In this document: in pieces, positions 2,086 through 37,634 of the stretch | How positions within the stretch are numbered: position 1 is the stretch's first letter | Layout: every line of letters begins with the position of its first letter | NCBI GenBank assembly: GCA_964398205.1 | Contig: CAYNLU010000002.1 | Location: 1,004-65,003, forward strand | Direction of reading: 5' to 3' | DNA from: an uncultured Candidatus Saccharibacteria bacterium | Lineage (GTDB): Bacteria; Patescibacteriota; Minisyncoccia; Phycocordibacterales; UBA9973 | Length of the DNA: 64,000 nucleotides | The notes under the pieces: model-generated | The model's database searches: none | What the model saw: the letters and a program-made list of their open reading frames with translations, nothing else | What the model was told of the DNA's origin: nothing | Made by a program: the position numbers and the translations under genes

Positions 2086-2086
2086 A

Positions 2087-4005: not shown

Positions 4006-4030
4006 ACCTACATTGATGACGCAACTCGTC

Positions 4031-9417: not shown

Positions 9418-9431
9418 ACTTCTCAGGTAAT

Positions 9432-11675: not shown

Positions 11676-11687
11676 TTGATTCTGAAA

Positions 11688-13169: not shown

Positions 13170-13170
13170 A

Positions 13171-13368
13171 TCATCTGTTTTTTCTTAATGCGTTTTCCAA
13201 GAACTCGACCCGTTCTTTAAGTTCTGTGTTGGCTATATTCTTTGAAAGCGTAGAAGTAAGCTTGGCAATCATAGATGCCTGCTTGAGTGACATTTCCTTA
13301 TTCATCACTTTGCGGATAGTATCCGAAAGAATATTATTTATTTCTTCTAGGTTAATTGGTTTAGTCAT
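13171..13368 (-). CDS. hypothetical small protein (65 aa)
   Basis: ORF within operon, 1-nt spacing to neighbours. Confidence 0.35.
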   Translation of the reverse strand: MTKPINLEEINNILSDTIRKVMNKEMSLKQASMIAKLTSTLSKNIANTELKERVEFLENALRKNR

Positions 13369-13369
13369 A

Positions 13370-13744: not shown

Positions 13745-13751
13745 ATATCAC

Positions 13752-15756: not shown

Positions 15757-15873
15757 AGGGTTTTTATTCAGAAGAGGTTCTTAGCTGCTCTTCTACCCTT
15801 ATTCGTCATTGAATGACAAAATGACAATTTCTTTTTACTTCCTCAAAATGAGTAGCGAGAAAATCTTTAATAC

Positions 15874-15908
15874 AAAAGACCTTTTGCTTGAACGAGCAAA
15901 AGGTCTTT
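15874..15908. terminator. bidirectional rho-independent terminator
   Basis: Perfect 14-bp stem aaagaccttttgc/gcaaaaggtcttt with 7-nt loop, T/A runs on both sides. Sits between the ParB-MTase start and the stop of the 15933-16688 gene. Confidence 0.6.
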
Positions 15909-15932
15909 ATTTCGTCATTTTATATGAAATGA

Positions 15933-16688: not shown

Positions 16689-16834
16689 AAAGCTAAACTT
16701 CTTCAGTCAGAACGTGCTAGAATAGCCTTACAAGGGTTGAACCCACGGGTACCATACCCGAGTACACCGCCACAACAATCTAGTGTCGGAAGACCCGAGT
16801 ACCTAAATTCTCAAAGTTAAGCTAAAATATATAC

Positions 16835-17335
16835 ATGCAACAGTTTTTAGGTAATGAGTTTAATAAAGAAACCGAGGATGCGATATATTTCTATACGCCT
16901 GTATTTTATGCACTTGATAATTTCTCAGCCCACACAATAGAAATATGGGGCAAAAAATTTCAAACATCTGAACATGCGTACCAATGGAAGAAATTTATAG
17001 ATTCAAATCCTGAGATAGCTGAACAAATATTCAACGCAACAAGCCCTAACGAAGTTAAGAAAATCTCTGATATTCATAAAAGCGAAGCTTCTCGTAATTT
17101 TCCTGATTTAAAACTCAAAATAATGGAAGAAATTCTTCGAGCAAAAACTGAGCAACATGAGAAAGTTAGAATAATTTTAAAAGAAAGTGGAAACAAAACT
17201 ATTGTTGAGAATTCTCCTATAGATAGTTTTTGGGGAGTTGGTCCTGATGGAAAAGGAGAAAATGCCTTGGGCAAGCTTTGGATGAAAATAAGAGATTCTA
17301 AAAATTTTACTAATGACCCCGGTCCCTCGGCTTAA
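16835..17335 (+). CDS. NADAR-domain protein (YbiA-like N-glycosidase family)
   Basis: 166 aa. TSEHAYQWKKF and FWGVGPDGKGENALGKLWM match the NADAR/DUF1768 signature. Confidence 0.65.
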   Translation: MQQFLGNEFNKETEDAIYFYTPVFYALDNFSAHTIEIWGKKFQTSEHAYQWKKFIDSNPEIAEQIFNATSPNEVKKISDIHKSEASRNFPDLKLKIMEEILRAKTEQHEKVRIILKESGNKTIVENSPIDSFWGVGPDGKGENALGKLWMKIRDSKNFTNDPGPSA

Positions 17336-21527: not shown

Positions 21528-21590
21528 AACATCTATTATTCTTAATTCCTTATAAATCATAATATAGGGATTTTAACTTGCTTGCCAAGA

Positions 21591-21608
21591 TATATATATA
21601 TATATATA
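21591..21608. repeat. (TA)9 dinucleotide microsatellite
   Basis: tatatatatatatatata, about 30 nt upstream of the 21639 ORF. Confidence 0.9.
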
Positions 21609-21638
21609 ATTTAAGTATTATAAATAACATTCAAATTT

Positions 21639-21836
21639 ATGAGTGAAATAACATTAACAGCCGAAGAAGTAAAAACTATTTTTGAAAAATTACAAAAAGG
21701 TGAATCTACTCAAGAAGAAGAATTACAATTATTAAAAACCCTAAACCTAGGGGTAGAAGCTATGCGTGATTTAGCAAAAGAATTTGGTAATGAAATAAAA
21801 GTCGAAGAACTTAAAAATACTAATACAGAAAAATAA
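21639..21836 (+). CDS. hypothetical small protein (65 aa)
   Basis: ORF immediately preceding and 1-nt spaced from the next gene. Confidence 0.35.
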   Translation: MSEITLTAEEVKTIFEKLQKGESTQEEELQLLKTLNLGVEAMRDLAKEFGNEIKVEELKNTNTEK

Positions 21837-21837
21837 C

Positions 21838-22500
21838 ATGAAATTTAATTTTGAAAAACATATAAAAACTCCTGAACCAGAAACAAAAAAAGAGGAATTA
21901 AATGATGAACAAATAGAAGCGAATTATGAACAAGAAATCTTAGCTGAAACTAAAAAACTAGGCACTAATTTAGCATCTTTAAAATCTGAAATAGACGCAT
22001 TAGGTGGTCCAGAAAAATTTAAAGAATATTTTGAAAAACCAGTATTAATGGAGAATGGAAATGAAATAAGAAAAGGTGAGGTTGGAAACATAGAAACAAG
22101 AGGTTCTTACGAAATCCAAAAATTAAGTCAAAAAATAAAAGAAAAGATAAGTTTAAAAGCTGCTGTAGCCTTAGCTTCTATTATGAATTTTATGCATATT
22201 TATGGTATATCCATGATGAATCAAAATATGGGTAATAAAAATATTCAAGAATATTTTAGCCAAGAAACAATGCAAACTATAATAAATAATTTTAATAATT
22301 TTTCAGAAAAAAATGCAGTTAATCAAGGAGCAATGATTACTGGATTAATGTTCAGTGCTATGATATTAAGTATTCAATCAGGCGCGATTTATACAGGGAT
22401 AAAAGATGCTATTGAAAAAAGAAAACTAAAAAGAGAAAAAGCGAAACAAGAATTGAAGTTCAAAATGACTGATACTGATATAGATAAAAAATTTAATTAA
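21838..22500 (+). CDS. hypothetical protein with C-terminal TM helix
   Basis: 220 aa, Lys/Glu-rich with one hydrophobic segment. Confidence 0.4.
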   Translation: MKFNFEKHIKTPEPETKKEELNDEQIEANYEQEILAETKKLGTNLASLKSEIDALGGPEKFKEYFEKPVLMENGNEIRKGEVGNIETRGSYEIQKLSQKIKEKISLKAAVALASIMNFMHIYGISMMNQNMGNKNIQEYFSQETMQTIINNFNNFSEKNAVNQGAMITGLMFSAMILSIQSGAIYTGIKDAIEKRKLKREKAKQELKFKMTDTDIDKKFN

Positions 22501-22503
22501 AAG

Positions 22504-22538
22504 AAACCCCATAGGTCTTACCTATGGGGTTTCTTTTT
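22504..22538. terminator. bidirectional rho-independent terminator
   Basis: aaaccccatagg-tctta-cctatggggttt followed by a T-run, between convergent genes. Confidence 0.7.
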
Positions 22539-22542
22539 AGTG

Positions 22543-23271
22543 CTATTTAAAATTTTTAATTAAATTCTCTTCAAAATTAACGGTATTTTCGGCAAATCCT
22601 CTATCTAAAAGATAAGTTGCGAATTTTTTATCATAACCGGTAATGATAAAAATTCCAGTTAAAATAAATAAAATAGCAAAGACTTTTTTAACTTTCTCTA
22701 AAGTATTTTCGTTTTTAGCGAAAATATTAATAACTTTATTCCCCAAATAAGCAACTAAAAATAGAGCGAGGGTAAGTCCTAAAATAAATCCCAAAAGATA
22801 TAGCAAGCCTTCATTTATACTTTTAGGTAAGACTGTTCCTAGGATAAAAAAGTAAGTCGGGCTACAAGTCGTAAAGACAGGACCTAAAGAAAAACCAATA
22901 AGTACATCTCCATAAGAATTATTTTTCTTATAACCCTCCCCTAAACTTTTATTTGCAGAGAGATTTAAAATTTTTACAAAAGGTAAATTAGCCCAAATAC
23001 TAGGAAACAAAATACTAAATCCTAAAAATATAATTATTAATCCTGAAAAATATTGCCAGAAGGTTTCCGGTATATCTATAAACAAAGTGCTCGCTTTTAA
23101 TAAAATTGTAAAAATAAAAACAGAAAAAGCTAAAGATAATATAACTCTAAAAGTTTTTGCACTAGATTTTCCAGCATCACTACTACCTACTACCACCGGC
23201 AACAAAGGAAAAATACAAGGCGCAAGTATAGTTAAAGCACCAGCTAAAATTGAAATCAAAAACAAAATCAT
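22543..23271 (-). CDS. ccdA: cytochrome c-type biogenesis / thiol-disulfide transporter CcdA (DsbD transmembrane domain)
   Basis: 242 aa polytopic membrane protein. Conserved Cys in TM1 (LAPCIFPLLP) and later TM (FTTCSPT). Confidence 0.7.
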   Translation of the reverse strand: MILFLISILAGALTILAPCIFPLLPVVVGSSDAGKSSAKTFRVILSLAFSVFIFTILLKASTLFIDIPETFWQYFSGLIIIFLGFSILFPSIWANLPFVKILNLSANKSLGEGYKKNNSYGDVLIGFSLGPVFTTCSPTYFFILGTVLPKSINEGLLYLLGFILGLTLALFLVAYLGNKVINIFAKNENTLEKVKKVFAILFILTGIFIITGYDKKFATYLLDRGFAENTVNFEENLIKNFK

Positions 23272-23272
23272 T

Positions 23273-23788
23273 TTATATTTGTTCGATTAGATCTGCTAAG
23301 GTTGGACTACCGGACCATTTCTTGATCAGATTACCATTTGCATCAACTTGTACTAAAGTATGCTGATAAGTTACTCCGTATTTTTTCTTTAAATCTTTAT
23401 ATTCATCATAATCAACATCCAAGATTAATAAATCTTTTGGAATATTGTTACGATTATTTTCTATATCTCTATCCAAAGCTCGACAAGTCGGACACCAAGA
23501 CGCCCTAAAAAATAAAACTACATTCCCTTTATTGGCGAAAGCGAGAGCTGAAGGCTCGTAAGTTTCATACCCAGAAACTAAACCTTCTTCACCTACCCTA
23601 GACTCTAAGTTTTCTTGATTAGATTTTTGATCATCTAAATCACTCTTTAGACTAGATTCGGAATTTATGTTTTTCTCATTATTTAAATTTTGATTTTCTT
23701 TATCAACAAAGAAAAATACAGCGAAGGCACTTATTAACAAAATAACAACAATTAAATTAAAGTAGCTAAAACCTTTTTGATATTTCAT
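23273..23788 (-). CDS. thioredoxin-like TlpA/ResA-family thiol-disulfide oxidoreductase
   Basis: 171 aa. Signal anchor, WCPTC active site. Translationally coupled to ccdA. Confidence 0.7.
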   Translation of the reverse strand: MKYQKGFSYFNLIVVILLISAFAVFFFVDKENQNLNNEKNINSESSLKSDLDDQKSNQENLESRVGEEGLVSGYETYEPSALAFANKGNVVLFFRASWCPTCRALDRDIENNRNNIPKDLLILDVDYDEYKDLKKKYGVTYQHTLVQVDANGNLIKKWSGSPTLADLIEQI

Positions 23789-23870
23789 ATTTTTATAATT
23801 AATATTAATTACTTTAATTATACTATAAAATCAAATTTACTTTTATACACAAAAGTATTAAGATAAATTT

Positions 23871-24296
23871 ATGAAACAATACGAAGAAATTCTAGACAAT
23901 AAAGGGCTTAAAAAAACTGAAATTCGTATTTTATTACTAGATTTCTTGTCTAAAATCAAAAAACCCATAAGTGCTTCAGAAATTTTACTTCAATTAAAGA
24001 AAAATAAACTTGATCAAGTTACTGTTTATCGAACTTTAGAGTCTTTTTTAGAAAAAGGCATCATTAAAAAAGTAGAAACTGGTAAAAGAGAGTCAGAATA
24101 CGAAATAATTGATAAAAAAAACGATCATCATCATATGATCTGCATGAAATGTAACCGAATCGAGGACTTTGTAGGTTGCGACAGCTTAAAAATCGTAGAA
24201 AGTGCATTAAAAAAAGCAAAAAACTTTAAAAAAATTAGTCATCATTCCTTTGATTTATTTGGTCTTTGCAATAATTGCGAGGAAAATAAAAAATAA
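23871..24296 (+). CDS. fur: Fur-family metalloregulator (Fur/PerR/Zur)
   Basis: 141 aa. HHHMICMKCNRIEDF...C..C metal-site motifs, N-terminal winged helix. Confidence 0.8.
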   Translation: MKQYEEILDNKGLKKTEIRILLLDFLSKIKKPISASEILLQLKKNKLDQVTVYRTLESFLEKGIIKKVETGKRESEYEIIDKKNDHHHMICMKCNRIEDFVGCDSLKIVESALKKAKNFKKISHHSFDLFGLCNNCEENKK

Positions 24297-24333
24297 ACTG
24301 TGGATAACTATAAGACATATTAAAAAATATGCC

Positions 24334-24449: not shown

Positions 24450-25766
24450 ATGACTACAAACAATAATAAAAATCTTGTAAACTGCGTAACCAAAAGAGAT
24501 GGTACGATTGCAGATTTTAATATCAAAAAAATAGAAAACGCTATATATAAAGCGATGATTTCAGTAGGACAAGGTACGAACGAAGACGCAGAAAAAGTAG
24601 CAGAACAAGTGGTCATAAAATTAAATGCAAAATTTGCTACCGAATTAGATCACAGTGATGGAAAATTAGAGGTTTGCCCGAACGTAGAAGAAGTTCAAGA
24701 TATTGTCGAGGAAACCCTAATGGAAAAAGACTTTTTTGAAGTCGCAAAAGCTTATATTATTTACCGTAAAGAAAGAGCTGAGGAAAGAAAACGAGATATT
24801 TTCAAGAAAAGAATTCAATTAAAGCCTTATGAATACCCTGAATTATATGAATACGTTAGTGCTATCCGTCACTCTTATTGGATCCATACTGAATTTAACT
24901 TTGTTAGCGATATTCAAGACTTCAAAGTTAATGTTTCAGAAAACGAAAAATCTGCTATCAAGCACTGCATGCTAGCTATTGCTCAAATCGAGGTAGCAGT
25001 AAAAACTTTCTGGGGAGATATCTATAAAAAAATGCCAAAACCAGAAATCGGAGCAGTTGGAGCTACTTTTGCAGAAAGTGAAGTTCGCCACACAGACGCT
25101 TACTCTCACCTACTTGAAATCCTGGGCCTCAATACTGAATTCGGTAATATTAAAAATATTCCGGCTTTAATGAATAGAGTTAATTATTTAGAAAAAGCTA
25201 TAGCGAACAAAGGTAGTAATGATAATCGTGAATATACTCAATCAATACTCCTATTTTCTTTGTTTATAGAGCACGTTTCCCTCTTCTCTCAATTTCTAAT
25301 CATAATGTCTTTCAATAAGCACAAGAACCTATTCAAAGGAATTTCTAATGCAGTTGAAGCAACCTCCAAAGAAGAGCAAATTCACGGCTTATTCGGTATA
25401 GATCTTATAAATATTATTAGAGCAGAACATCCAGAATGGTTCGACAAAGAATTTGAGGATAGTATTGTGGCTATGTGTCACGAAGCTTTCGAATCAGAAA
25501 AAGGTGTAGTAGATTGGATTTTTGAAAAAGGAGAATTAGATTTTATGCCAAAAGTAGTAGTCTTAGAGTTTATCAAGCAAAGATTCAATAATTCTTTACA
25601 AAGTATAGGAATTAATAAAATCTTTGAAATTGACGAAATGTTCCTTAAAGAATCTGATTGGTTCTACGATGAAGTGATAGCAACTAAGCACGGAGACTTC
25701 TTTAACAAGAAATCGATAAATTACAACAAAAAAGGTAAAAGTATTACAAGCGACGATCTGTTTTAA
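24450..25766 (+). CDS. nrdB: class I ribonucleotide reductase beta subunit (NrdB) with N-terminal ATP-cone
   Basis: 438 aa. ATP-cone VTKRDGTIADFNIKKIENAIYKA, ferritin-like ligands ESEVRHTDAY (Tyr at H+4), LFIEH, EEQIHGLF. Confidence 0.75.
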   Translation: MTTNNNKNLVNCVTKRDGTIADFNIKKIENAIYKAMISVGQGTNEDAEKVAEQVVIKLNAKFATELDHSDGKLEVCPNVEEVQDIVEETLMEKDFFEVAKAYIIYRKERAEERKRDIFKKRIQLKPYEYPELYEYVSAIRHSYWIHTEFNFVSDIQDFKVNVSENEKSAIKHCMLAIAQIEVAVKTFWGDIYKKMPKPEIGAVGATFAESEVRHTDAYSHLLEILGLNTEFGNIKNIPALMNRVNYLEKAIANKGSNDNREYTQSILLFSLFIEHVSLFSQFLIIMSFNKHKNLFKGISNAVEATSKEEQIHGLFGIDLINIIRAEHPEWFDKEFEDSIVAMCHEAFESEKGVVDWIFEKGELDFMPKVVVLEFIKQRFNNSLQSIGINKIFEIDEMFLKESDWFYDEVIATKHGDFFNKKSINYNKKGKSITSDDLF

Positions 25767-25796
25767 TTATTAATAATATAATCATAAAAAATAAAC

Positions 25797-27527
25797 ATGT
25801 ACTGGTTAAATGAAAATAGTAGAAAATTTTTAGCAAAGGGTTACTTAATGGAAGGCGTTACTGCAGAAGAACGTATTCGTGAAATTGCAAATATTGCAGA
25901 AAAGTATTTAAATAAGCCGGGTTTCGCAGATAAGTTTTATGATTATATGTCTCGTGGCTTTTATTCTTTAGCCTCTCCTGTTTGGTCTAACTATGGACTT
26001 AGTAGAGGGTTACCTATAAGCTGTTTTTCAAGTTTTATTGCAGACGATATGTCTCGTATACTTTTTACTCATGCTGAAGTAGGTATGATGACTAAATACG
26101 GAGGAGGTACTGCTGGTCACTTTGCAGGTCTTCGTCCTCGTGGAGCAGTTATTAAAGATAACGGGCATTCTTCAGGAGCAGTACACTTTATGGAACTTTT
26201 TGATAATCTTATAAATATAGTTAGTCAAGGTTCTGTACGTCGTGGTCATTTCGCACCTTATTTACCTGTAGAGCACGGTGATATTGAAGAATTCCTAAAT
26301 ATCGGTAAAGAAGGTCACCCTATACAAGAATCTACTTATGCGGTTACTGTTACAGATGCTTGGATTAAAGATATGGTAGGAGGAGATCAAGAAAAAAGAA
26401 AGATTTGGGCAAAAATAATTCAACGCCGAACTGAAATAGGTTATCCTTATATTTTATTCTCTGATACCGTAAACAATAACACTGTAGACGTATATAAAGA
26501 TAAAAATATGAAAATTTATGGTAGTAATCTTTGTTCAGAAATTTGTTTACCTACTAGTGATGAAATTTCTTTTGTTTGTTGTTTGTCATCTATGAATTTA
26601 CGTCACTACAAAGAATGGAAAGATACTGACGCGGTTGAAACTTTAACTATGTTCCTCGATACTGTTATTTCTGACTTTTTAGCTCGACTCGAAAGTCTAC
26701 GTGATCATGAAGATCCTCAAAAGCAAAGTGCGTTTTATTTTATGCAACGTGCATATAAATTTGCTAAAGAACACAGAGCTTTAGGTTTAGGGGTTTTAGG
26801 TTGGCACACTTTCCTTCAAGAAAACAACATTGCTTTTGAAAGCAAAGAAGCTATCGAACTTAACAAAGAAATCTTTAAATTAATTAACGAGAAATCTTAT
26901 AATGCATCAGCAGAGCTTGCGAAAGAATACGGTGAACCAGAAATTCTAAAAGGTTACGGACGTCGCAATACTACCCTTATCGCTATCGCGCCTACTACTT
27001 CTTCGGCTTTTATCTTAGGTCAAGTTTCTCAAAGTATTGAGCCTATTATGTCTAACGCTTTTGTTAAAGACGTAGACAAGATGAAAGTTACAATCAAAAA
27101 TCCTACTCTAGAAAAATTATTAGAAGAAAAAGGTATGAACACTAATGAAGTTTGGAGTAGTATTCGGGACAATGACGGCTCCGTGCAACACTTAGACGGA
27201 TTAACTGAGCACGAGAAAATGGTATTTAGAACTTTCAGCGAACTTGATCAAAAGATAATCATAGATCAAGCTTCTGATCGTCAAAAATATATCGATCAAG
27301 CTCAATCTTTAAACCTTATGATTGACCCTACTATGCCTACTAAAGACTTAAATGCGCTTTATCTCTATGCTTGGGAAAAGGGGGTTAAAACTCTTTACTA
27401 TCAACACAGTATGAATGCCGCTCAACAATTCGGACGCAAGAAATTGCAAGAAGTTGAGATGAAAAAGAAAGCTCTCAAAGAAGCAGAAGAAAACGGCTAC
27501 AACGTCTGCGTAAGTTGCGAAGGATAA
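25797..27527 (+). CDS. nrdA: class I ribonucleotide reductase catalytic subunit (NrdA-like, no ATP-cone)
   Basis: 576 aa. NLCSEI active-site motif, C-terminal CVSCEG redox cysteines. No N-terminal ATP-cone. Confidence 0.75.
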   Translation: MYWLNENSRKFLAKGYLMEGVTAEERIREIANIAEKYLNKPGFADKFYDYMSRGFYSLASPVWSNYGLSRGLPISCFSSFIADDMSRILFTHAEVGMMTKYGGGTAGHFAGLRPRGAVIKDNGHSSGAVHFMELFDNLINIVSQGSVRRGHFAPYLPVEHGDIEEFLNIGKEGHPIQESTYAVTVTDAWIKDMVGGDQEKRKIWAKIIQRRTEIGYPYILFSDTVNNNTVDVYKDKNMKIYGSNLCSEICLPTSDEISFVCCLSSMNLRHYKEWKDTDAVETLTMFLDTVISDFLARLESLRDHEDPQKQSAFYFMQRAYKFAKEHRALGLGVLGWHTFLQENNIAFESKEAIELNKEIFKLINEKSYNASAELAKEYGEPEILKGYGRRNTTLIAIAPTTSSAFILGQVSQSIEPIMSNAFVKDVDKMKVTIKNPTLEKLLEEKGMNTNEVWSSIRDNDGSVQHLDGLTEHEKMVFRTFSELDQKIIIDQASDRQKYIDQAQSLNLMIDPTMPTKDLNALYLYAWEKGVKTLYYQHSMNAAQQFGRKKLQEVEMKKKALKEAEENGYNVCVSCEG

Positions 27528-27534
27528 AAAAAAT

Positions 27535-27558
27535 AAAAAACCACATTAGTGGTTTTTT
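27535..27558. terminator. bidirectional terminator hairpin
   Basis: aaaaaaccacattagtggtttttt between the nrdA stop and the convergent cob(I)alamin adenosyltransferase gene. Confidence 0.6.
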
Positions 27559-27566
27559 ATTTTTAT

Positions 27567-28139
27567 TTATTTGTAATTTGGTTTTTTGTATGGAAAACCT
27601 TTTTTATAATTAGCATATCTAGCTAAAGCATATAGAACGCTCGATAATCTATTTAAATATTGAAGACTTATAGGATTTACTTCTTTTTCTTTTTTATCAG
27701 ATAGAATGACAAGAGATCTCTCTACCCTTCTCGAAACAGCTCTTAATACGTCCAAATATGCTCCTAATTGGGTTCCACCTGATATTATGAAGGAATCAAT
27801 CGTTGGTAAAAATTTTTCTACTTCCGAAATTCTATTTTCTAAAAAAGAAATATGATCTAATTTTAGATAAAAAGTGTCGCTTGCTAATTCCGCTTGAATA
27901 GAAAATAAATTCTCTTGTATTTCTTCCAAGAAATCTTCATAAGTAAAAATATTTTCTAAAGAAAAATTATCTTCTTTTGCTAAAGTTTTAGCAAAACCAA
28001 TACCAGAATTCAATTCATCAACATTACCTAAAGCTTCAAAGATAAAAGCTCCCTTGGTAATTCTTTCACCTGGTTTAGAATTAAATAATTTTGTCGTACC
28101 ATTATCCCCTTTTCTAGTGTATAACATATTAGATTTCAC
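27567..28139 (-). CDS. PduO-type ATP:cob(I)alamin adenosyltransferase
   Basis: 190 aa. N-terminal MLYTRKGDNGTTKLF is the PduO-type ATR signature. Overlaps the nrdJ stop by 11 nt. Confidence 0.75.
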   Translation of the reverse strand: MKSNMLYTRKGDNGTTKLFNSKPGERITKGAFIFEALGNVDELNSGIGFAKTLAKEDNFSLENIFTYEDFLEEIQENLFSIQAELASDTFYLKLDHISFLENRISEVEKFLPTIDSFIISGGTQLGAYLDVLRAVSRRVERSLVILSDKKEKEVNPISLQYLNRLSSVLYALARYANYKKGFPYKKPNYK

Positions 28140-30399
28140 AAATACCTGCTACGCAAGCAAGCTCTTTTTTAACTTCTGTTTCATCTTCTTTTTCATAAGT
28201 TACAATCTTAGAAAAATCAATTCCTTCAAAATGTTTCAACATAGATTCGTATTTTTCTTTCGTAATTTCTTCATAAGGAGCAAGCGGATAGACGTGATTA
28301 TCTCTTGGCAAAAAAGACAAACCTCCTACTAAATCCCAGTTTTCGTATATCCAGTTTGCTACCGATAACCATTCATAATCTCCAACAGAAATAGTTACAG
28401 AAGGATTATGTTCAGTATAATTAACCTTAACAGTTTTCCAATGTTCAAGCTGATCTAAAGCAGAAATATCATTTTTACAAATCGAACCTTCTGGCGCTTT
28501 TACTGGAAATTCTAATACATAAGTGGTAGCATTTTCTTCATTTTGACCAATTTCTGGGAAATATGGGACTCCTTGATCTTTTAACATTTTAAAAAGTGAA
28601 TCTGTCGCTGAAATACGAACTCTCCTGATATAGTATTCGGAATGTCTAGTATGCATACCAGAGGAACAATCTACAGTCTGAGAAACGGTACCGGAAGGCT
28701 TAACACAAGTAATACAAGTAGATTGATTGATTTCAAATTTTTTTGCGTACTTTTTATTTATTTCAATTGCATAATTTTTTAATTTTTCTAAAACTTTTCC
28801 ATCGCGAGCAACTTTTGAATCCCATTGACCAGTAACAGAAACTCCTAGCAATCTTTCTTTTTCACAATTTTTCTTCCATTCTTTTGAAAGATATGGGAAA
28901 TAAGTAAGAGTTGATTGATAAGTACCTAAAATAGTAGCTAAACGAATTTTACGCATTAAAGTTTCTTCAGTATCTTCTTTACGAGCAATAACTTCAGACA
29001 AATTACAAAATTGTTTTGATTGTAAAATAATTTCTCCACAAGGATTAGTCCCCCAAGCTGGATAAATTCCTCCTTTGAATTGATCTAATCTTCTTTTTGG
29101 TAAAGTTTTAGCTAAACTTCCACGATTAAATATTCCTCTTTCACCAGATCCGGATTTTACCAAAGCATTCCATTCATCCAAAAATTCAGAAGTAGTTGGT
29201 TTTTGTATATAAACAGCTGAATTATTTGCGAGCATTCGTTGTGACTCAGAAATATAAAATTGGCCTTTTTTAGAATCTCTTATAGCTTCATCGTCTAAAT
29301 CAGAAAGAGATATCATAGCACTACGACGCACTCCCCCAGCAACAACACATTCTCCTATTTTACAAATAATATCGTGAGCATCCATATTATTTAGTCGACG
29401 TCCTTGTCTACGCAATATTCTTTCTCGAGAAAAATTGATTAAAGATTTTAATGGTTCTGGTCCAGAGCTTTTTCCACCCATAGTTTTTAAACGAGATCCG
29501 GCTTTACGTATTTTAGAATAATCAAAATTTACATCATTACCATCAAACCAAGTTTCTAAAGCAAAAGTAAAAGCATCTGCCCAACCTTCTTTGCTATCTA
29601 AAACTACATAAGTAGGTAATATTTTTCCAGTTTGTTTTTTAATTTGTGGTAAAGCTTGAATATTTTCACTCTCAACAGACCAACCCACACCCGTACCACA
29701 CATAGATATATACATTATTTCAGCAAAGTCTTTTAAGGCTACAGGGGCAATAAAAGAACAATTGTAAGCACAAACATTAGTTTTACGAGCAGGTTTACCA
29801 GCAAACTGTACCAGCCTCATAGAAGGCATAACTTCTTGATTTAAAATAGCTTCACGAATTTCTTTATATTCAGAATCGCTCAATTTACCGTTTAAATTCT
29901 CTCTCATAAAATCAACATAACGATCAACTGTTTCTATCCAAGTTTCTCTTCGACCCTCTTCCTCAATCCATTTAGCATAAGTACGATAATAAACAAATTC
30001 AGACAAAGAATTCCGAAAATATTTTTTACTTTGATTTACCAAATCTCTAACTTTTTCTGGGACAAAACCTATCTTTTCTCTAACACTAGCTCTTTCTTTA
30101 CGATATAAAATATAAGCCTTTGCTGTTTGCAAAAAATTTGCAGAAATTAATTCATTCTCAACTATGTCCTGAATAGTTTCAACTTTTGGTATGAAGTTTT
30201 TAATTTTATTTTCTTTTTTAAGATTCAAAAGGGCCTTTAACACATTTTGCGTAATTCTTTTAGCATCCACTTCTACCCCTTCTCCGGTCGCATTTAAAGC
30301 TTTAAAAATAGCCCTAAAGATTCTGTTTTCATCGAAAGGCACAATAGAACCATCTCTTTTTTCGATGTTTAGTAGTACACTTTTTTGATTTTTTTTCAT
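28129..30399 (-). CDS. nrdJ: class II (adenosylcobalamin-dependent) ribonucleotide reductase NrdJ with N-terminal ATP-cone
   Basis: 756 aa. ATP-cone IEKRDGSIVPFDENRIFRAI, RNR barrel motifs (NPCGEI, C-terminal Cys pair). Followed by the B12 adenosyltransferase. Confidence 0.75.
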   Translation of the reverse strand: MKKNQKSVLLNIEKRDGSIVPFDENRIFRAIFKALNATGEGVEVDAKRITQNVLKALLNLKKENKIKNFIPKVETIQDIVENELISANFLQTAKAYILYRKERASVREKIGFVPEKVRDLVNQSKKYFRNSLSEFVYYRTYAKWIEEEGRRETWIETVDRYVDFMRENLNGKLSDSEYKEIREAILNQEVMPSMRLVQFAGKPARKTNVCAYNCSFIAPVALKDFAEIMYISMCGTGVGWSVESENIQALPQIKKQTGKILPTYVVLDSKEGWADAFTFALETWFDGNDVNFDYSKIRKAGSRLKTMGGKSSGPEPLKSLINFSRERILRRQGRRLNNMDAHDIICKIGECVVAGGVRRSAMISLSDLDDEAIRDSKKGQFYISESQRMLANNSAVYIQKPTTSEFLDEWNALVKSGSGERGIFNRGSLAKTLPKRRLDQFKGGIYPAWGTNPCGEIILQSKQFCNLSEVIARKEDTEETLMRKIRLATILGTYQSTLTYFPYLSKEWKKNCEKERLLGVSVTGQWDSKVARDGKVLEKLKNYAIEINKKYAKKFEINQSTCITCVKPSGTVSQTVDCSSGMHTRHSEYYIRRVRISATDSLFKMLKDQGVPYFPEIGQNEENATTYVLEFPVKAPEGSICKNDISALDQLEHWKTVKVNYTEHNPSVTISVGDYEWLSVANWIYENWDLVGGLSFLPRDNHVYPLAPYEEITKEKYESMLKHFEGIDFSKIVTYEKEDETEVKKELACVAGICEI

Positions 30400-30401
30400 T
30401 T

Positions 30402-30947
30402 TTAGATTTGCTTAGAATTCAAAAAATTCATAATGAATGAAGTTTCAAATTTTTTATTAGTAATAACAAATTTATACAAGCTAGGACTTAAAACAATAGC
30501 AAAAGAAACATTTCCCAATAAATGCCATAAGGTAAATGGGATTTGTCCTGTTAAAGCTTCTATAAAAGGTTGATTGTAGAATAACGGACCAAAAGATAAA
30601 CCAGTGATTCCGTCAAAAAACAAAGTTCCTATAATTGCGAAAGATACGTAATTCCATTTATTTTCTTTATATTTTTTAAAAAAATAAACTGCTCCAAAAC
30701 CCAAAACTCCATAAGTTGTAGCTGTTAATAATGTCCAATAACCTAATTTTTGAGTTAGTAAATCATAAATAATGATATTCAAGAAAGCAAAAAGAAAACC
30801 AGCGACGCCGCCATAAGCACGACTGAAAGGCATTTGAGTCGCTAAAATAGGTTCTATATTCGGGGGACGAAAAGGAATAAGCCTAATAAGGCTACAAGCA
30901 ACTATACCGAGAGTAAACTTAAACCAATTCTTTCTATATGTCTCCAT
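30402..30947 (-). CDS. small polytopic membrane protein (possible ECF-type vitamin S-component; cobalamin uptake?)
   Basis: 181 aa, ~5 TM helices. 3 nt upstream of nrdJ in the same operon. S-component assignment rests on size, topology and context only. Confidence 0.35.
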   Translation of the reverse strand: METYRKNWFKFTLGIVACSLIRLIPFRPPNIEPILATQMPFSRAYGGVAGFLFAFLNIIIYDLLTQKLGYWTLLTATTYGVLGFGAVYFFKKYKENKWNYVSFAIIGTLFFDGITGLSFGPLFYNQPFIEALTGQIPFTLWHLLGNVSFAIVLSPSLYKFVITNKKFETSFIMNFLNSKQI

Positions 30948-31121
30948 AAATATATTTAATTATTAATAATAATAGTTTTATAAAAAACTACTCGTGTATC
31001 AATTATAATCAACATGTCTCAGTAAAGGAAGGGTGGATAACTTATAGTAAAAAACCCTTAAAAATACAAGACGGCTTAAAAACAATAGACACAAATCCTG
31101 ATATTTTGTTATACTTAATAA

Positions 31122-31586
31122 GTGGAAAATAATAATAAACTATCTTGGGCTGTGCCTGCATATAATCACTCTAAAAAAAGCATTGATTGGTTTTGGGCTT
31201 TAGGTCTTATTGTATTAGTTGGAGCAATAACTTCCTTTATTTTTGATAATTACTTTTTTTCTATTTTACTTGTATTAGGAGGAATACTTATGGGTCACTT
31301 TGCAAACGAAGAACCTGAAACTCTATATTATGAATTGAACGAAAAAGGTTTAACTATCAAAGACCGCATATATCCTTTTAAGGCAATCAAATCTTATTAC
31401 ATAAACACTGAAAAGAACCCTACCCTATTTATTAAAACAGACAGGTTCTTCTTGCCTGTAATACCAGTCGCTATTAACCTAAATGTGGCTCAAAAAATCA
31501 ACGAAATATTTGAAAAAGAAGGTATAGAAGTAGAAGAAATGAGTGAAGGGCCAATAGAGCAAATAATGGATATGATAGGTTACTAA
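31122..31586 (+). CDS. hypothetical membrane protein
   Basis: 154 aa with two N-terminal TM helices. Confidence 0.4.
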   Translation: MENNNKLSWAVPAYNHSKKSIDWFWALGLIVLVGAITSFIFDNYFFSILLVLGGILMGHFANEEPETLYYELNEKGLTIKDRIYPFKAIKSYYINTEKNPTLFIKTDRFFLPVIPVAINLNVAQKINEIFEKEGIEVEEMSEGPIEQIMDMIGY

Positions 31587-31640
31587 CTAGATTTTTTTAT
31601 TAAAACCTGATAAGGTATTCTAAGTAAGTCTTTTAGATTT

Positions 31641-31712
31641 GCTTCCGTCGTTCAATGGATAGGACGCAACTTTGCGGAAGTTGTGATGCAGGTTCGATTC
31701 CTGCCGGGAGCA
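31641..31712 (+). tRNA. tRNA-Arg (anticodon GCG)
   Basis: Cloverleaf: acceptor GCTTCCG/CGGGAGC, D-stem GTTC/GGAC, anticodon stem CAACT/AGTTG with loop TTGCGGA, T-arm GCAGG-TTCGATT-CCTGC. 72 nt, no encoded CCA. Confidence 0.75.
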
Positions 31713-33000: not shown

Positions 33001-33054
33001 AAAACTAATATAACAGAAAAATTGAGAAAAGGCAAATTTTAAAAGAAAATTTTA

Positions 33055-33450
33055 TTACAAGAAATTAATAGTAAAATTATACATACCCATACTACAAGTA
33101 CCGGTTAAAGGCACACCAGAAACAGGCACACCAATATCAATAACCTCTTCTCCAGTTTGAGGTAGGATCTTTTGATAGTTAATAGACCTAATAGTTAAAG
33201 CAGCAGAACAATCAAAAACTCCGTTAGTCTTCACGATGAGCTTAGTAGGAATACCGGCTTTTGCTTGTGTGACTCTAGGAAAGTAACCTCCTCCTGCATT
33301 AATAGTGATATATTGAACCCCATCAATAATTTCTACTTTTTGCTGGTTTTGCTCTATGTTATTATTTGGTTTATTTTTTATAATTAGAGCTAAACCTACC
33401 AATAACAACACAGCTACTATACTCAGGAAAATTTTTGAATTAAATTTCAT
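33055..33450 (-). CDS. secreted small protein, possibly metal-binding (Cys/Met motifs)
   Basis: 131 aa. Signal peptide. DCS...CSMGMY. Last gene of the copper operon. Confidence 0.35.
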   Translation of the reverse strand: MKFNSKIFLSIVAVLLLVGLALIIKNKPNNNIEQNQQKVEIIDGVQYITINAGGGYFPRVTQAKAGIPTKLIVKTNGVFDCSAALTIRSINYQKILPQTGEEVIDIGVPVSGVPLTGTCSMGMYNFTINFL

Positions 33451-33459
33451 ATTTCTAAA

Positions 33460-34467
33460 TTATATATTAAATAACGGATTAATAATACCCAAAGCGACAA
33501 GCCCACCCAAAAATGCAAATAAACCGAGTCCTATCACGACTATTCCAGCAGATTTAAAGAAAAGATTAGCATACTTGGAATTAGCAAAAGAAGACGAACC
33601 AAAAGACAATAATAGAAGTACCGGCAAAGTCCCTAAAGCAAAAGCAAACATAATTAAACTTCCATTAAGAAATGATCCACTCGATAGAGCCACAACTTGC
33701 ATCGATTGAGTAAAACCACAAGGCAAGAAAAAAGTACCAAAACCAACGAGCAAAGGAGTGAGAGTTTTATGTTCTATTTTTCTAAAGAATTTAAAAATCC
33801 CAGAGTGCAATACGATTTTATTCTTTGAAAATACTCCCACCAAATTCAAACCGAGGAATATCATGACGATAGATGCGATTATACCCAAAATAGCAGTCAA
33901 GGTAAAATTAATACCAATAATATTTCCCACTAACCCCAAAGCTCCACCGAGCAAACCGAAACTAACTAATCTCCCAACGTGGAACAAAATGAAGGTTCTC
34001 TTGTCGCTCACATTGTCTTGAGACATCTTGGCGGACAAAGACAATACGAGCCCTCCAACAATAGCCAAACACGAAGACACTGAAGCTATAAGTCCGATAA
34101 TAAAACTTGTAATTGGTGTAGTTTTGCCTCCAATACCTAAGTTTAAAATTCCAGATTTTTGAAGCATAAAGAAAAGCGCTAAAAAACCTAAGCCGATAGG
34201 TATTGCTTGCCATAAAATATCATTGCTCTTTTTTTCTACTTTAAGATTCTCAGCTGAAAGAATATAGCCATTGGTTTTAATAAGACTCCCCAGTATTTCA
34301 ATTAACTCTTCTTTACTTTTCGGACTATCAGTCTCAATATCTACTGTCTTAGTTTTTAAATTAACTTCTACTTTTTTTACTATATCCTCTTCCCCTAAAA
34401 CATCTTCAATTAATATTTTGCAAGATGCACAATGTGTCCCCGAAACATGAAATGTATATTTATTCAT
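33460..34467 (-). CDS. HMA (heavy-metal-associated) domain fused to CcdA/DsbD-like transmembrane protein
   Basis: 335 aa. N-terminal GTHCASCK HMA motif. Polytopic membrane domain with conserved Cys (SVSSCLAIVGG, FFLPCGFTQ). Confidence 0.6.
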   Translation of the reverse strand: MNKYTFHVSGTHCASCKILIEDVLGEEDIVKKVEVNLKTKTVDIETDSPKSKEELIEILGSLIKTNGYILSAENLKVEKKSNDILWQAIPIGLGFLALFFMLQKSGILNLGIGGKTTPITSFIIGLIASVSSCLAIVGGLVLSLSAKMSQDNVSDKRTFILFHVGRLVSFGLLGGALGLVGNIIGINFTLTAILGIIASIVMIFLGLNLVGVFSKNKIVLHSGIFKFFRKIEHKTLTPLLVGFGTFFLPCGFTQSMQVVALSSGSFLNGSLIMFAFALGTLPVLLLLSFGSSSFANSKYANLFFKSAGIVVIGLGLFAFLGGLVALGIINPLFNI

Positions 34468-34476
34468 AAATTTATT

Positions 34477-36735
34477 TTATAATTTTTTACTTTTAATTCT
34501 TAATGAATTTCCAACGACAGAAACGGAAGACATAGCCATAGCTAAACCTGCAAAAATAGGATTAAGTAGCCATCCAGTAATTGGATAAAAAACTCCAGCA
34601 GCCAAAGGTATACCTATAACATTAAATATAAAAGCCCAAAAAAGATTTTGCCTAATACCAAGCATCGTTATTTTTGATAACTTTATTGCTTTTGCAATTT
34701 TAATAATATCTCCCCCCAATAAAGTAATAGAAGCTGACTCGATAGCCACATCTGTTCCTGTTCCCATAGCAATACCTACGTCTGCTTTCGCTAAAGCCGG
34801 GGCATCATTAATACCGTCTCCCACCATAACAACCACTTTATTTTCTTTTTGTAATTCTTGAATCTTACCAGCTTTTTCTTTCGGCAACACCCCAGAAATA
34901 ACTTCATCTATACCTAATTGCTTAGCTATATATTTTGCTGTTAGACTGTTGTCTCCTGTAAGCATAACAGTTTTAATATTTAATTTATGCAATATTTTAA
35001 CCAATTCCACTGACTCAGTTTTTAAAGTATCACTCAATGCAATTAAGCCTGCTTGTTTTTTGTTTACTTCAACGATTATTACTGTTTTCCCTTGTTCTTG
35101 CAATTTAACTATCTGAGTATTTTTTAAATCTAAGTCAGTTGGTTTATGAATATAAATTGAAAGATTATTTATTTCACCTATAACCCCGACTCCTTCTTGA
35201 GCTATAAATTTTTCTACTTTGTACAAATCAAGATTTTGTTCAACAGCTTTTTTTACAACTGCATAAGCGAGTGGATGCTCTGATAGGTTTTCTACACTTG
35301 CAGCAATTTTTAAAATTTCTTGATCAGAAAAACTATTGTCTAAATTAATCAAATCAGTAACTTCTGGTTTACCTTTTGTTAAGGTTCCAGTTTTATCCAT
35401 AACAACAATACTAGCTTTACTTAATTTTTCCAAAGATTCTGCGTCTTTAATCAAGATACCGTTTTCTGCTCCCTTTCCAACTCCTACGATAATAGCCGTT
35501 GGAGTAGCAAGTCCAAGAGCACAAGGACAAGCAATAACTAATATACCCACAAAAGATAAAATTCCAAATGATAGGGCTTGCGAAAAACCTAAAAACATAG
35601 TTCCCACAGTTAACCACAAAATTAAAGTCACAATAGAAATTATTAAAACTAAAGGCACAAATATGTTTGAAATTTTATCAGCCAAACTTTGAATTGGAGC
35701 TCTAGAACCTTCAGCTTGTTCTACCATCTTTATAATTTGTGACAAAAAAGTGTCTTTACCAATTTTATTAGTTTTAAATTTAAAATTACCTTGAATATTC
35801 ATAGTTGCTCCAAAAACGATGTCACCAGTTTTTTTATCTACCGGAATAGGTTCCCCCGTTATCATTGATTCATCGACTGAAGATTGACCTTCTATTATTT
35901 CTCCATCTACTGGAATTTTTTCACCAGGACGAACAACGACAATATCTCCAATTTTCACTTCACTAATAGGTATTTCAACTTCAATTCCATTTTTTAGAAC
36001 TCGAGCAGTTTTTGCCTGTAAATTTAATAATTTTTCAATTGCTTCTCCGGTTCTGATTTTTGATTTCATTTCAAGATATTTACCGAAAATCACAAAACCG
36101 ATAACTACTATGGTTACATCGAAATATGTCACTTCGCTCAGATTAAGCAACAATCTAATATCAGGGAATAACACTACAAAAACACTATAAAAATAAGCGA
36201 CAGAAGTTCCAATACCTATTAAAGTATCCATATTAGCAACGCGGTATTTTATAAATCTTAATACTCCTTTTAGGAAAGATTGTCCTGACCAAAAAAGTAA
36301 AATAGTTCCTAAAATTAAAGAAATAGCATTGTGTAAATTCATGGGAATCGGGAAATTAGGCACAAAGGCAAATAGCTTTGAACCAATTTCCCACATCATC
36401 AAAAAGAATACAAGCAAAGCAACAGGGAGAGCAAAATACATTTTGCTTTTAATTTCTAATAATTCTTTTTGTTTTTCGTTTTTAGATTTATTAACATCAT
36501 TACCAGAAATATCCTCAATTGAATCTTCATCAATAAAACTATAACCTAACTTGTTTATCTCGTCATTCATCTTCGAAACAGATATTTTATCCAAATCAAA
36601 TAATAATTCGGCTTTTTCGGTAGCGTAATTTATTTTTACAGAATCAACACCTTCTAATTTTGAAACTTTTTTAGTAATAATAGCTGAACAACTAGCGCAA
36701 TGCATTCCTTTAACTTTAAGAGTTTTATTTATCAT
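34477..36735 (-). CDS. copA: copper-translocating P1B-type ATPase
   Basis: 752 aa. [14 protein letters not shown] in TM6 ([11 protein letters not shown]), DKTGTLT phosphorylation site, [10 protein letters not shown]. Confidence 0.9.
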
Positions 36736-36741
36736 AAAAAA

Positions 36742-37305
36742 TTAAATATTATACCAATCCTTTCTCCAGTTCTTAAAAATTTCTAAAGTATCTTTAAGAA
36801 AAGTTTCGACCGCATCTGCATTATTCAAAACCTCCAATCTACTTGATTTGGTTTTTATTTCTTTTGTCATAAGTAAACCCATTTCATGATGAGCAATAAG
36901 TGCATTCAAAAAACGCAAATCAAAATTATCATCGTAAACTCCTAAGTTTACAACAACTGGGTCTTTGATATTACGAGTATCTTTATACCAATCTTTTTTC
37001 CAGGTATACAGTTCGTCTATAGCCGAAGGCTCATTGGTTAATATTTTTTCAGCTAAACCTTTTATTTCAGGGCGTTCGGAGTATAAAGCAGCCTCTTGCG
37101 CTAGAAGCATTGCTCCCCTATGATGAGATATCATCGCATTTAGATATCTTAAATCTAAATTTCTATCAGCTCGACCAAAATCCATTTCAGACTTGTCATA
37201 CATACTAACCTTATATTCAGGATTTACAAAAAATCCTAAAAGCAAACCTGAAACAAAAGACACAACTATTAATGCTATCGCTAAAATTGTAGATATTTTT
37301 GACAT
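36742..37305 (-). CDS. DUF305-family protein (periplasmic, copper-resistance associated)
   Basis: 187 aa, signal anchor. Duplicated N(A)(M/L)I(S/A)HH...A motif characteristic of DUF305. Confidence 0.7.
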   Translation of the reverse strand: MSKISTILAIALIVVSFVSGLLLGFFVNPEYKVSMYDKSEMDFGRADRNLDLRYLNAMISHHRGAMLLAQEAALYSERPEIKGLAEKILTNEPSAIDELYTWKKDWYKDTRNIKDPVVVNLGVYDDNFDLRFLNALIAHHEMGLLMTKEIKTKSSRLEVLNNADAVETFLKDTLEIFKNWRKDWYNI

Positions 37306-37310
37306 ATATT

Positions 37311-37574
37311 TTATTTTTTCTTTAATTGATAAACTTTTAAAATTTCATTGGTGGCTTTTTCGGTTTCGCCTTTTTTAATTTGATTCACTAAACAATGACT
37401 TAAATGACTCTGAAGCAATAAATCTTCTACCCCAGAAAGGGCTTGTTTAATTGCCGAAGTTTGAGTAATAATATCAATACAATAAGTATTTTTTTCTATT
37501 AAATTTTGTAAACCTCTAACTTGCCCTTCTATTATTTTTAATCTCTTTTTTATTTTTTGTTTATTTATATCCAT
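37311..37574 (-). CDS. csoR: CsoR/RcnR-family metal-sensing transcriptional repressor
   Basis: 87 aa. RLKIIEGQVRGLQNLIEKNTYCIDIITQ...HLSHC matches the CsoR signature including Cys/His metal ligands. Confidence 0.8.
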   Translation of the reverse strand: MDINKQKIKKRLKIIEGQVRGLQNLIEKNTYCIDIITQTSAIKQALSGVEDLLLQSHLSHCLVNQIKKGETEKATNEILKVYQLKKK

Positions 37575-37634
37575 GTTTATATGGTATACCCACCGGGGGT
37601 ATATGTCAAATAGTATGTGTGCTATAATGGAATT

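Follow-up and report, generated by a model that had tools for sequence, protein, structure and literature searches.

We identified a three-gene operon that is likely to serve as a self-contained system for the salvage and use of vitamin B12. It lies on the minus strand of the window, the whole 64-kb stretch of DNA that was analysed, where three closely spaced genes run from 30947 to 27567 and encode, in this order, a small membrane protein, the class II ribonucleotide reductase (RNR) NrdJ, and an adenosyltransferase. The operon and its surroundings comprise the following features:

30402..30947, minus strand: gene of the 181-aa CbrT-like ECF-type S-component, predicted to span the membrane with six helices and to bind and translocate corrinoids (vitamin B12)
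28129..30399, minus strand: nrdJ (756 aa), adenosylcobalamin-dependent class II RNR of the monomeric RTPR type with an N-terminal ATP-cone
27567..28127, minus strand: gene of the PduO-type ATP:cob(I)alamin adenosyltransferase (186 aa from the ATG at 28127)
27529..27564, bidirectional: intrinsic terminator hairpin common to pduO and the convergent nrdA, from a terminator scan
27538..31102, no strand: cassette present as an insertion or deletion relative to L090, the closest relative found, from blastn

The three open reading frames reported by the first-pass annotation were confirmed at their minus-strand coordinates. The gap between the membrane protein stop codon and the nrdJ ATG, given there as 3 nt, measures 2 nt, and a single nucleotide separates the nrdJ stop codon from the pduO ATG at 28127 (product beginning MLYTRKGDNG). 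The GTG listed as the pduO start at 28139 is probably not the start used. On both strands, the terminator hairpin forms a 16-pair stem followed by T runs.

NrdJ contains the Pfam domains ATP-cone (residues 11-104, E 2e-21), RNR_Alpha, RNR-II_ins_dom, and Ribonuc_red_lgC, and possesses the insertion domain, the thiyl-radical NPCGE motif, and the C-terminal cysteine pair of an RTPR core (PF21995, PF17975). This core aligns end to end with the RTPR of L. leichmannii (PDB 1L1L; E 2.3e-50, residues 13-737 of 739 aligned), and the alignment includes the GTNPCGEI active-site motif and the redox cysteine pair in the C-terminal CxxxxC. Compared with the L. leichmannii enzyme, the window NrdJ has an additional N-terminal ATP-cone, which is 35% identical to the cone of the neighbouring NrdB. 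The score against the NCBIfam RTPR model (290 bits) is under the equivalog cutoff of 340, indicating that NrdJ belongs to a divergent RTPR subgroup. The adenosyltransferase exceeds the cutoff of TIGR00636 (143.4 versus 108.45 bits), covers PF01923 over the full length of the model (E 1.8e-44), and matches 37 PduO-type PDB structures (best E 4.5e-23).

The coexistence of a class I and a class II RNR had been considered unusual for such a streamlined genome, a view that our comparisons do not support. The class I enzyme with an ATP-cone-bearing NrdB is represented by more than 120 clusters (70% identity or above), all from Paceibacteria/Patescibacteria where a source is named. The juxtaposition of the two classes is seen again in the sister lineage L092, whose arrangement is the same as that of the window. 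The class II cassette is merely present or absent among close relatives: L090 (GCA_031972685.1) is collinear with the window at 80-86% identity by blastn, and the segment 27538-31102 has no counterpart there. The window NrdB matches that of L. blandensis with an E-value of 8.7e-181. The idea that the window's class I RNR was recently acquired from Flavobacteriia by horizontal transfer was set aside in view of the number of clusters and the paceibacterial origin of those with a named source.

The membrane protein is predicted to form a small bundle of six transmembrane helices, one more than first annotated, with the fold of an S-component and a length within the S-component range of about 160-220 aa. 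It passes two Pfam models, PF07155 (31.8 bits, threshold 26.7) and PF20221 (28.7 bits, threshold 27). The latter, DUF6580, is described as a "putative transport protein" and is uncharacterised. PF07155 was matched by 37 of the 40 family members scanned, while PF20221 is passed or approached by the window protein and by 12 of these members; most members score better on PF07155. One distant representative of the family, P0489, was found only on a 652-bp contig.

CbrT and BtuM had been proposed as the B12 transporters to compare it with, and homology was established for CbrT, whereas BtuM showed none at E<=10. A single-sequence phmmer search of the PDB gave no match, and CbrT was reached by the family profile only. 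With a limit of E<=10, CbrT (6fnp_A, E 0.0022) was the sole match of that profile in the PDB, and no RibU, FolT, ThiT, BioY, or BtuM chain was reported. Aligning the family with 22 CbrT-family proteins by hhalign gave a probability of 97.1% and an E-value of 6e-11 over 143 columns, at only 23% identity. Besides the S-component fold, the family shares the motifs R22/R26, PN[IV][EQ]P, GxWT, and FxxxHxxGN with CbrT of Lactobacillus delbrueckii, solved as ECF-CbrT (PMC5997447; PDB 6FNP). Across the 79 family sequences, R22, N30, E32, D62, and H142 are invariant or almost so, and some of these residues recur in CbrT. Judged by sequence, the window family is a distant relative of CbrT, a sister family and not an orthologue. 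The low identity and three differences count against a B12 transporter. The best Pfam models differ (PF07155 and PF20221 versus PF12822 for CbrT), and the predicted structure resembles CbrT and BtuM no more closely than it does other S-components. Moreover, the (A/G)xxxA motif in helix 1 of CbrT is not conserved at the aligned positions: A/G16 and A20 align with family positions 12 and 16, where most members have I/V, and a G14xxxC18 pair lies two residues away from the aligned positions. Mutagenesis of ThiT reportedly linked this small-xxx-small (AxxxA) motif to EcfT docking.

The gene order is conserved well beyond the window. Among 78 informative species-representative Patescibacteria loci, 64 have the S gene directly followed by an RTPR-type nrdJ, with spacers in the conserved S/nrdJ/adenosyltransferase order mostly between -4 and +29 nt, indicating that the arrangement is not due to chance. 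An adenosyltransferase gene follows nrdJ in 57 of the 59 loci with enough downstream sequence. It is of the PduO type in 48; in the other 9, a CobA/BtuR-type enzyme, unrelated to PduO, stands in its place. Linkage of the S gene extends to two further NrdJ subclasses, and the gene also occurs in a Woesearchaeota locus (L073, L079, L065).

Further support came from genes that relatives add to the cluster. At 28 loci, these encode a membrane-anchored DUF4430 (cbrS-like) protein and a larger protein (about 650 aa). In Rfam scans of 10 loci carrying such genes, a riboswitch of the cobalamin clan scored above threshold immediately ahead of them in every case, and the element was detected by nhmmer in 22 loci. 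One example of the element lies at 13454-13550 of L016. The Pfam domain links these proteins to transcobalamins, which carry DUF4430 as their C-terminal domain (PMC4350170). Neither protein had a significant match among PDB sequences, and the 650-aa protein gave only sub-threshold Pfam hints. An archaeal DUF6580 gene adjoins a DUF4430 gene. The window itself contains no DUF4430 gene. A search of it for cobalamin riboswitches was negative at gathering thresholds, as was one of 30300-31700 with the limit relaxed to E<=10, and a relative's riboswitch used as nhmmer query found no copy in the window. Both absences count against a B12 operon.

The closest characterised counterpart is the nrdJ-cbrS-cbrT-pduO cluster of Lactobacillus, which served to predict CbrT before B12 transport by CbrT was demonstrated experimentally (PMC5997447). 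It is built from the same families: a monomeric RTPR-type NrdJ, PduO, an S-component, and DUF4430. The first three are together in the window, and many patescibacterial relatives have DUF4430 as well. The L. helveticus cluster reads nrdJ-DUF4430-cbrT-pduO, has no ECF module genes beside cbrT, and encodes an NrdJ that lacks the ATP-cone present in the window enzyme. The window differs further in its gene order (S-nrdJ-adenosyltransferase) and its lack of cbrS. In relatives, the cbrS-like gene follows a riboswitch, and the operon follows a DnaA-box-like site. The first-pass reading, in which an operon combines a B12-dependent RNR, a dedicated adenosyltransferase, and a small membrane protein acting as B12 S-component, is supported by the predicted fold, the homology to CbrT, the conserved synteny, the non-orthologous displacement of the adenosyltransferase, and the B12 riboswitches in relatives' clusters. 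The B12 specificity of the S-component is well supported by inference from the recurrent gene order, the exchange of PduO for CobA, the riboswitch-controlled DUF4430 genes, and the same four families in Lactobacillus.

Genes for ECF A, A', or T components, which would energise transport, were found neither in the 64-kb window nor in 1.2 Mb of flanks extending up to 10 kb from 82 distinct related loci, indicating that no dedicated (group I) module is encoded beside the S gene. In a motif scan for ABC ATPases of the window, only UvrA carries the ABC signature. The flanks contain 10 ABC ATPases; those matched to a family are ABC-F, LivF-type, FtsE, and SufC, and the remaining ones are exporter-like by size and neighbours. 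The first-pass annotation would have abandoned the S-component assignment if no energising ECF module existed, but this argument is invalid because BtuM and, in rare organisms, BioY function without one (PMC6072759). The S-component may rely on a shared ECF module from another locus or on no module at all, two options that we consider about equally likely.

It is conceivable, at somewhat less than even chance, that the S-component acts alone on a corrinoid by facilitated diffusion through toppling, made effectively one-way by adenosylation and capture by NrdJ. The absence of ECF ATPase and T genes from the window and the relatives' flanks, the bulky I/V residues aligned with the helix-1 motif of CbrT, and the portability of the three-gene cassette (its insertion or deletion relative to L090, its varied genomic contexts, and the archaeal locus) all point this way. 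So does BtuM of Thiobacillus denitrificans (PDB 6FFV/8OVV), which, like the window S-component, has an adenosyltransferase gene adjacent and no ECF module nearby; btuM co-localises with btuR, and metabolic trapping has been proposed for it (PMC6072759) and is plausible here. However, BtuM is proteobacterial and linked to BtuB, unlike the window protein, and its invariant loop-3 cysteine (Cys80, the cobalt ligand) is missing in the window family, so neither decyanation nor base-off binding with a cysteine ligand is to be expected. Ligation by a cysteine, as in BtuM, was rejected since the 79 family sequences contain no invariant one; the only conserved one, C18 (65 of 79), is located in helix 1. 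Solitary action is also at odds with CbrT, the nearest characterised homologue, which works with a shared module encoded away from its cluster (PMC5997447).

An equally credible reading takes the S-component as a group II protein that uses ATP and docks on a shared EcfAA'T module whose genes lie elsewhere in the genome, as in Lactobacillus ECF-CbrT. The homology to CbrT favours it, as do the Lactobacillus cluster of the same families, whose module is likewise encoded elsewhere (PMC5997447), and the name "ECF transporter S component" that some databases give to relatives. The lack of a module in the window and in the relatives' flanks and the non-conserved helix-1 motif argue against it. Within the library searched, the literature held nothing relevant on DUF6580, on CPR with ECF transporters, or on CPR NrdJ with an adenosyltransferase; for a shared module in this phylum, this is weak counter-evidence.

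It is improbable that the S-component serves a different vitamin, cobalt or another metal, or a nucleoside and adjoins nrdJ for co-regulation instead of B12 supply: the top Pfam match is nominally the riboflavin S-component family PF07155, RibU and FolT outrank BtuM and CbrT in fold searches, and 10 divergent family members have no nrdJ in the surrounding sequence at hand, but the PF07155 match is weak and partial (residues 23-100) and shared by CbrT proteins, the family profile recovered CbrT and none of RibU, FolT, ThiT, and BioY from the PDB at E<=10, and the linkage tracks the cofactor across three NrdJ subclasses and two unrelated adenosyltransferase families, in clusters that hold B12 riboswitches and DUF4430 proteins and lack any other candidate B12 transporter. 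Cobalt import would also be useless in Patescibacteria, whose genomes are not known to encode corrin synthesis.

Upstream of the operon, three candidate regulatory elements were located:

31033..31040, minus strand: DnaA-box-like octamer TTATCCAC, 25 nt upstream of the -10 hexamer, a putative regulatory site
31002..31007, minus strand: probable -10 hexamer TATAAT of the operon promoter, read from the sequence
30973..30990, minus strand: inverted repeat TAGTTTT-TTAT-AAAACTA, a possible operator that lies downstream of the -10 hexamer and ahead of the start codon

The hexamer at 31002..31007 was not called by a two-hexamer consensus scan, but it sits relative to the conserved box as in relatives. 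The motif TTATCC[AC]C precedes the S gene in 51 of 79 loci, compared with a background of 0.0096 per 200 nt, and in 50 of these 51 it lies 22-28 nt from a -10-like hexamer. It is missing in all 14 loci where an RTPR-type nrdJ does not directly follow the S gene. Elsewhere in the window, two copies of the octamer are located in the dnaA-dnaN intergenic region and one upstream of nrdB. The operon may be controlled by DnaA. A 14-bp palindrome, TAGTT[TG]CG[AC]AACTA, occurs in 18 relatives with the same half-sites and at the same place as the inverted repeat of the window.

These data suggest a scheme in which corrinoid specificity, the direction of transport, metabolic trapping, control by DnaA, and the energy source are inferred. 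The three genes would be co-transcribed from one promoter with a DnaA-box-like site to one terminator. The CbrT-related S-component would bind an external corrinoid at an outward-facing pocket and carry it across the membrane by toppling, as S-components typically do. PduO would convert the imported cobalamin, once reduced to cob(I)alamin, into adenosylcobalamin, which would also trap the vitamin in the cell. Adenosylcobalamin would then act as the radical cofactor of the RTPR-type RNR, allowing deoxyribonucleotides to be made independently of oxygen, with the ATP-cone presumably conferring on-off control by dATP/ATP. A bolder proposal, which we advance only tentatively, is that the S-component is a solitary CbrT-related cobalamin transporter, the first of its kind, and the general B12 entry of Paceibacteria and some DPANN archaea, within a portable nrdJ/adenosyltransferase cassette that provides ultra-small symbionts with oxygen-independent dNTPs under DnaA-box instead of riboswitch control.

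Patescibacteria (CPR) are abundant, mostly uncultured, and rely on other cells, and very few nutrient importers have been recognised in them. As a counterpart of the characterised Lactobacillus cluster, the cassette makes sense and would be expected by specialists rather than surprise them. It is a test case for whether S-components work in reduced genomes without an ECF motor, and a concrete target for cultivation with B12 supply and for heterologous transport assays. In relatives, capture of the vitamin is probably the task of the surface proteins that have a transcobalamin-like domain and are under riboswitch control. Our analysis predicts that many Paceibacteria require external B12 for DNA precursors and that one small membrane protein is its likely point of entry.

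The operon occupies the minus strand as three head-to-tail ORFs, and its terminator is shared with the convergent class I gene nrdA. The coordinates and gene calls of the first-pass annotation were retained, whereas its spacer lengths and pduO start required small corrections, giving the following layout.

30947-30402, minus strand: membrane protein, 181 aa
30399-28129, minus strand: nrdJ, product of 756 aa, starting 2 nt past the membrane-protein ORF
28127-27567, minus strand: pduO, product of 186 aa with N-terminus MLYTRKGDNG, starting 1 nt past nrdJ
27529-27564, both strands: terminator hairpin of 16 pairs, with T runs flanking it on both strands, common to the operon and nrdA

NrdJ carries an ATP-cone (residues 11-104; PF03477, E 2e-21), followed in Pfam by RNR_Alpha, the class II insertion domain and the RNR barrel. 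Its best NCBIfam match is RTPR, the monomeric adenosylcobalamin-dependent triphosphate reductase, at 290 bits, below the equivalog cutoff of 340. The Lactobacillus leichmannii RTPR (1l1l) aligns with NrdJ over residues 13-737 of 739 (E 2.3e-50), and the alignment includes GTNPCGEI and the C-terminal CxxxxC pair. The 186-aa protein is an ATP:cob(I)alamin adenosyltransferase of the PduO type: it scores 143 bits with TIGR00636, whose cutoff is 108, and matches 37 solved PduO-type structures in the PDB.

The membrane protein has the S-component fold and is distantly related to CbrT. Its scores exceed the Pfam thresholds for PF07155 (31.8 versus 26.7 bits) and PF20221/DUF6580 (28.7 versus 27). A search of 5.8 billion proteins returned 855 relatives; the best 120 of these share 61-90% identity and are nearly all about 181 aa long, and those with a named source are Patescibacteria/Paceibacteria. 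Mean column identity is 73% in a family alignment of 40 sequences. The family is compact: at E<=0.001 its profile matched only 265 clusters among 1.84 billion representatives clustered at 50% identity. When the family HMM was compared with every PDB chain (limit E<=10), the sole match was 6fnp_A (E 0.0022), from the structure of the L. delbrueckii cobalamin transporter ECF-CbrT (PMC5997447). A CbrT profile was built from 22 aligned relatives and compared with the S-component family by hhalign, giving 97.1% probability (E 6e-11, 143 columns, 23% identity). Invariant residues coincide between the two families, including R22/R26 in helix 1, PN[IV][EQ]P in loop 1, GxWT, and FxxxHxxGN in the last helix. 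Both also weakly match the same three Pfam models, in differing order.

Eighty loci were retrieved from species-representative genomes, almost entirely of Paceibacteria-type lineages, and 78 were informative. The S gene is directly followed by an RTPR-type nrdJ in 64 of the 78, with intergenic spacers mostly of -4 to +29 nt. Where enough sequence lies downstream of the S-nrdJ pair (59 loci), nrdJ is followed by the gene for PduO in 48 and by that for the unrelated adenosyltransferase CobA/BtuR (PF02572, E 2e-49) in 9. Four further loci hold the S gene in rearranged clusters or beside other class II subclasses: nrdJ-cobA-S in L045, a PRK06556-type NrdJ adjoining S in L073 and L079, and NrdJ_Z-pduO-S-nrdR in L065, a Woesearchaeota assembly. 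Because the association of S spans three subclasses of reductase and two families of adenosyltransferase, it tracks the cofactor, which is the classic signature of a functional link. Separately, loci L088 and L089 carry DUF4430-DUF6580 pairs on archaeal-looking contigs with MCM and GatE-like genes, and the presence of the S family or of DUF6580 relatives on such contigs, L065 included, hints at exchange of the B12 module between ultra-small bacteria and archaea.

Further B12 markers adjoin the relatives' clusters. In 28 loci the cluster is extended by genes for a membrane-anchored DUF4430 protein and a protein of about 650 aa (e.g., L005:13893-15839). The latter gives sub-threshold hints of DUF4430, of a squalene-cyclase/TED-like alpha/alpha-toroid and of a SpaA-like domain, and no significant PDB sequence match was obtained; a possible role is B12 binding at the surface in the manner of transcobalamin. 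Rfam scans of 10 loci with both genes placed a cobalamin-clan riboswitch above gathering score between the adenosyltransferase and DUF4430 genes in all 10 (AdoCbl-II in 8, AdoCbl in 1, Cobalamin in 1), namely at L016:13454-13550 and in L007, L012, L027, L039, L042, L051, L052, L057 and L072. With nhmmer, the element was located at this position in 22 loci. It would control only the DUF4430 and ~650-aa genes, not the transporter-reductase operon. The C-terminal domain of vertebrate transcobalamins is DUF4430 (PMC4350170). In Lactobacillus helveticus the order is nrdJ-DUF4430-cbrT-pduO, and CbrT function was first predicted from the nrdJ-cbrS-cbrT-pduO cluster and later proven (PMC5997447). In Patescibacteria, the window operon corresponds to that cluster, but neither a cbrS-like gene nor a cobalamin riboswitch was found in the window.

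For the energy source of uptake, two readings are about equally likely: the S protein uses a shared (group II) ECF module encoded elsewhere, as in Lactobacillus, or it is solitary, as BtuM is, and as BioY is in rare organisms. The helix-1 (A/G)xxxA motif matters for EcfT docking, and in CbrT it aligns with bulky residues of the S family, which was counted as a hint of solitary function. The gene btuM is found together with btuR, which encodes an adenosyltransferase, and metabolic trapping has been proposed for BtuM (PMC6072759); by analogy, the same logic would fit the window operon. A dedicated (group I) module beside the gene is excluded, since UvrA was the sole ABC ATPase with a signature motif in a scan of the window and no EcfA-EcfA'-EcfT arrangement occurred among ten ABC ATPases in 1.2 Mb flanking 82 distinct related loci. 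Family matching, where applied, identified ABC-F, LivF-type, FtsE and SufC proteins, and the others resemble exporters in size and gene neighbours. Membership of the BtuM family was ruled out because BtuM's invariant cobalt-ligating cysteine is absent.

Convergent with the cassette lie the class I genes nrdB-nrdA (24450-27527, plus strand), preceded by a Fur/PerR-family regulator gene (23871-24296). NrdB has an N-terminal ATP-cone, 35% identical to that of NrdJ, and matches Leeuwenhoekiella blandensis NrdB (5olk, E 8.7e-181); NrdA is cone-less, of the NrdE-prime type. The co-occurrence of the two classes had been regarded as unusual, a view that the sequences compared do not support: the cone-bearing NrdB type is widespread in Paceibacteria, forming more than 120 clusters at identities of at least 70%, with Paceibacteria as the named sources. 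It is the class II cassette that varies among close relatives. Of the relatives with a long contig, L090 (GCA_031972685.1) is the closest; its NrdB is 94% identical to that of the window, and the two stretches are collinear at 80-86% DNA identity, save for three window-only segments.

27538-31102: precisely the operon, promoter and terminator included
21528-23884: DsbD-like and thioredoxin-fold-sized membrane proteins
33038-37606: HMA-DsbD_2 membrane protein and CopA-type P-type ATPase, flanked by small ORFs and resembling a cassette for copper or heavy-metal resistance

In the sister lineage L092 the cassette is likewise convergent on fur-nrdB-nrdA, and in most other Paceibacteria its surroundings differ, ftsH lying on the upstream side and arsR-recG on the downstream side. 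The class II cassette is mobile or dispensable.

Elsewhere, window positions 1-17000 have a G+C of 0.35-0.40 versus about 0.31. They encode a large serine recombinase (2677-4005) and a DUF4011/SF1-helicase protein (4516-9417, 1633 aa) that also has an MTES_1575 nuclease domain. A DUF2779 protein and two N6/N4 DNA methylases are encoded as well, one of the methylases being fused to ParB-N; the region is probably a mobile or defence island that has integrated. LOOT RNA (RF03000) was detected at 11025-11151 (plus strand, 81 bits) and in a relative's locus (L012:2453-2569, 72 bits), both well above gathering score.

Upstream of the S gene, TTATCC[AC]C occurs in 51 of 79 loci compared (background 0.0096 per 200 nt), and in 50 of these 51 it lies 22-28 nt ahead of a -10-like hexamer. 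It is found in none of the 14 loci where an RTPR-type nrdJ does not directly follow S. The DnaA-box core, TTATCCAC, has five occurrences in the window.

31033-31040, minus strand: upstream of the S-nrdJ operon
24300-24307, minus strand: between fur and nrdB
62606-62613, minus strand, and 62759-62766, plus strand: dnaA-dnaN intergenic region
57125-57132, plus strand: fifth copy

This count alone is not significant, as five matches also turn up in 5 of 100 shuffles; the argument for a DnaA box rests on cross-species conservation. In E. coli, nrd genes are under DnaA control. Boxes precede both RNR operons, which suggests that dNTP supply may be under DnaA-linked control. Past the -10 hexamer, 18 relatives have a palindrome with TAGTT/AACTA half-sites, of which the window has a longer-spaced version (30973-30990). 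A highly conserved ArsR/HTH_5 regulator gene, 77-91% identical, ends the cluster in 32 relatives (e.g., L001:13452-13766 and L005:15883-16185) and is absent from the window. A candidate target of the relatives' regulator is the TAGTTnCGnAACTA palindrome of the operon promoter.

The presence of the S, nrdJ and adenosyltransferase operon was confirmed, and its interpretation as a B12 operon is supported by CbrT homology, the S-component fold and the same gene families as in the Lactobacillus cluster. It is probably a cassette for salvaging and using B12, representing in Patescibacteria and DPANN what the nrdJ-cbrS-cbrT-pduO system is in Lactobacillus.
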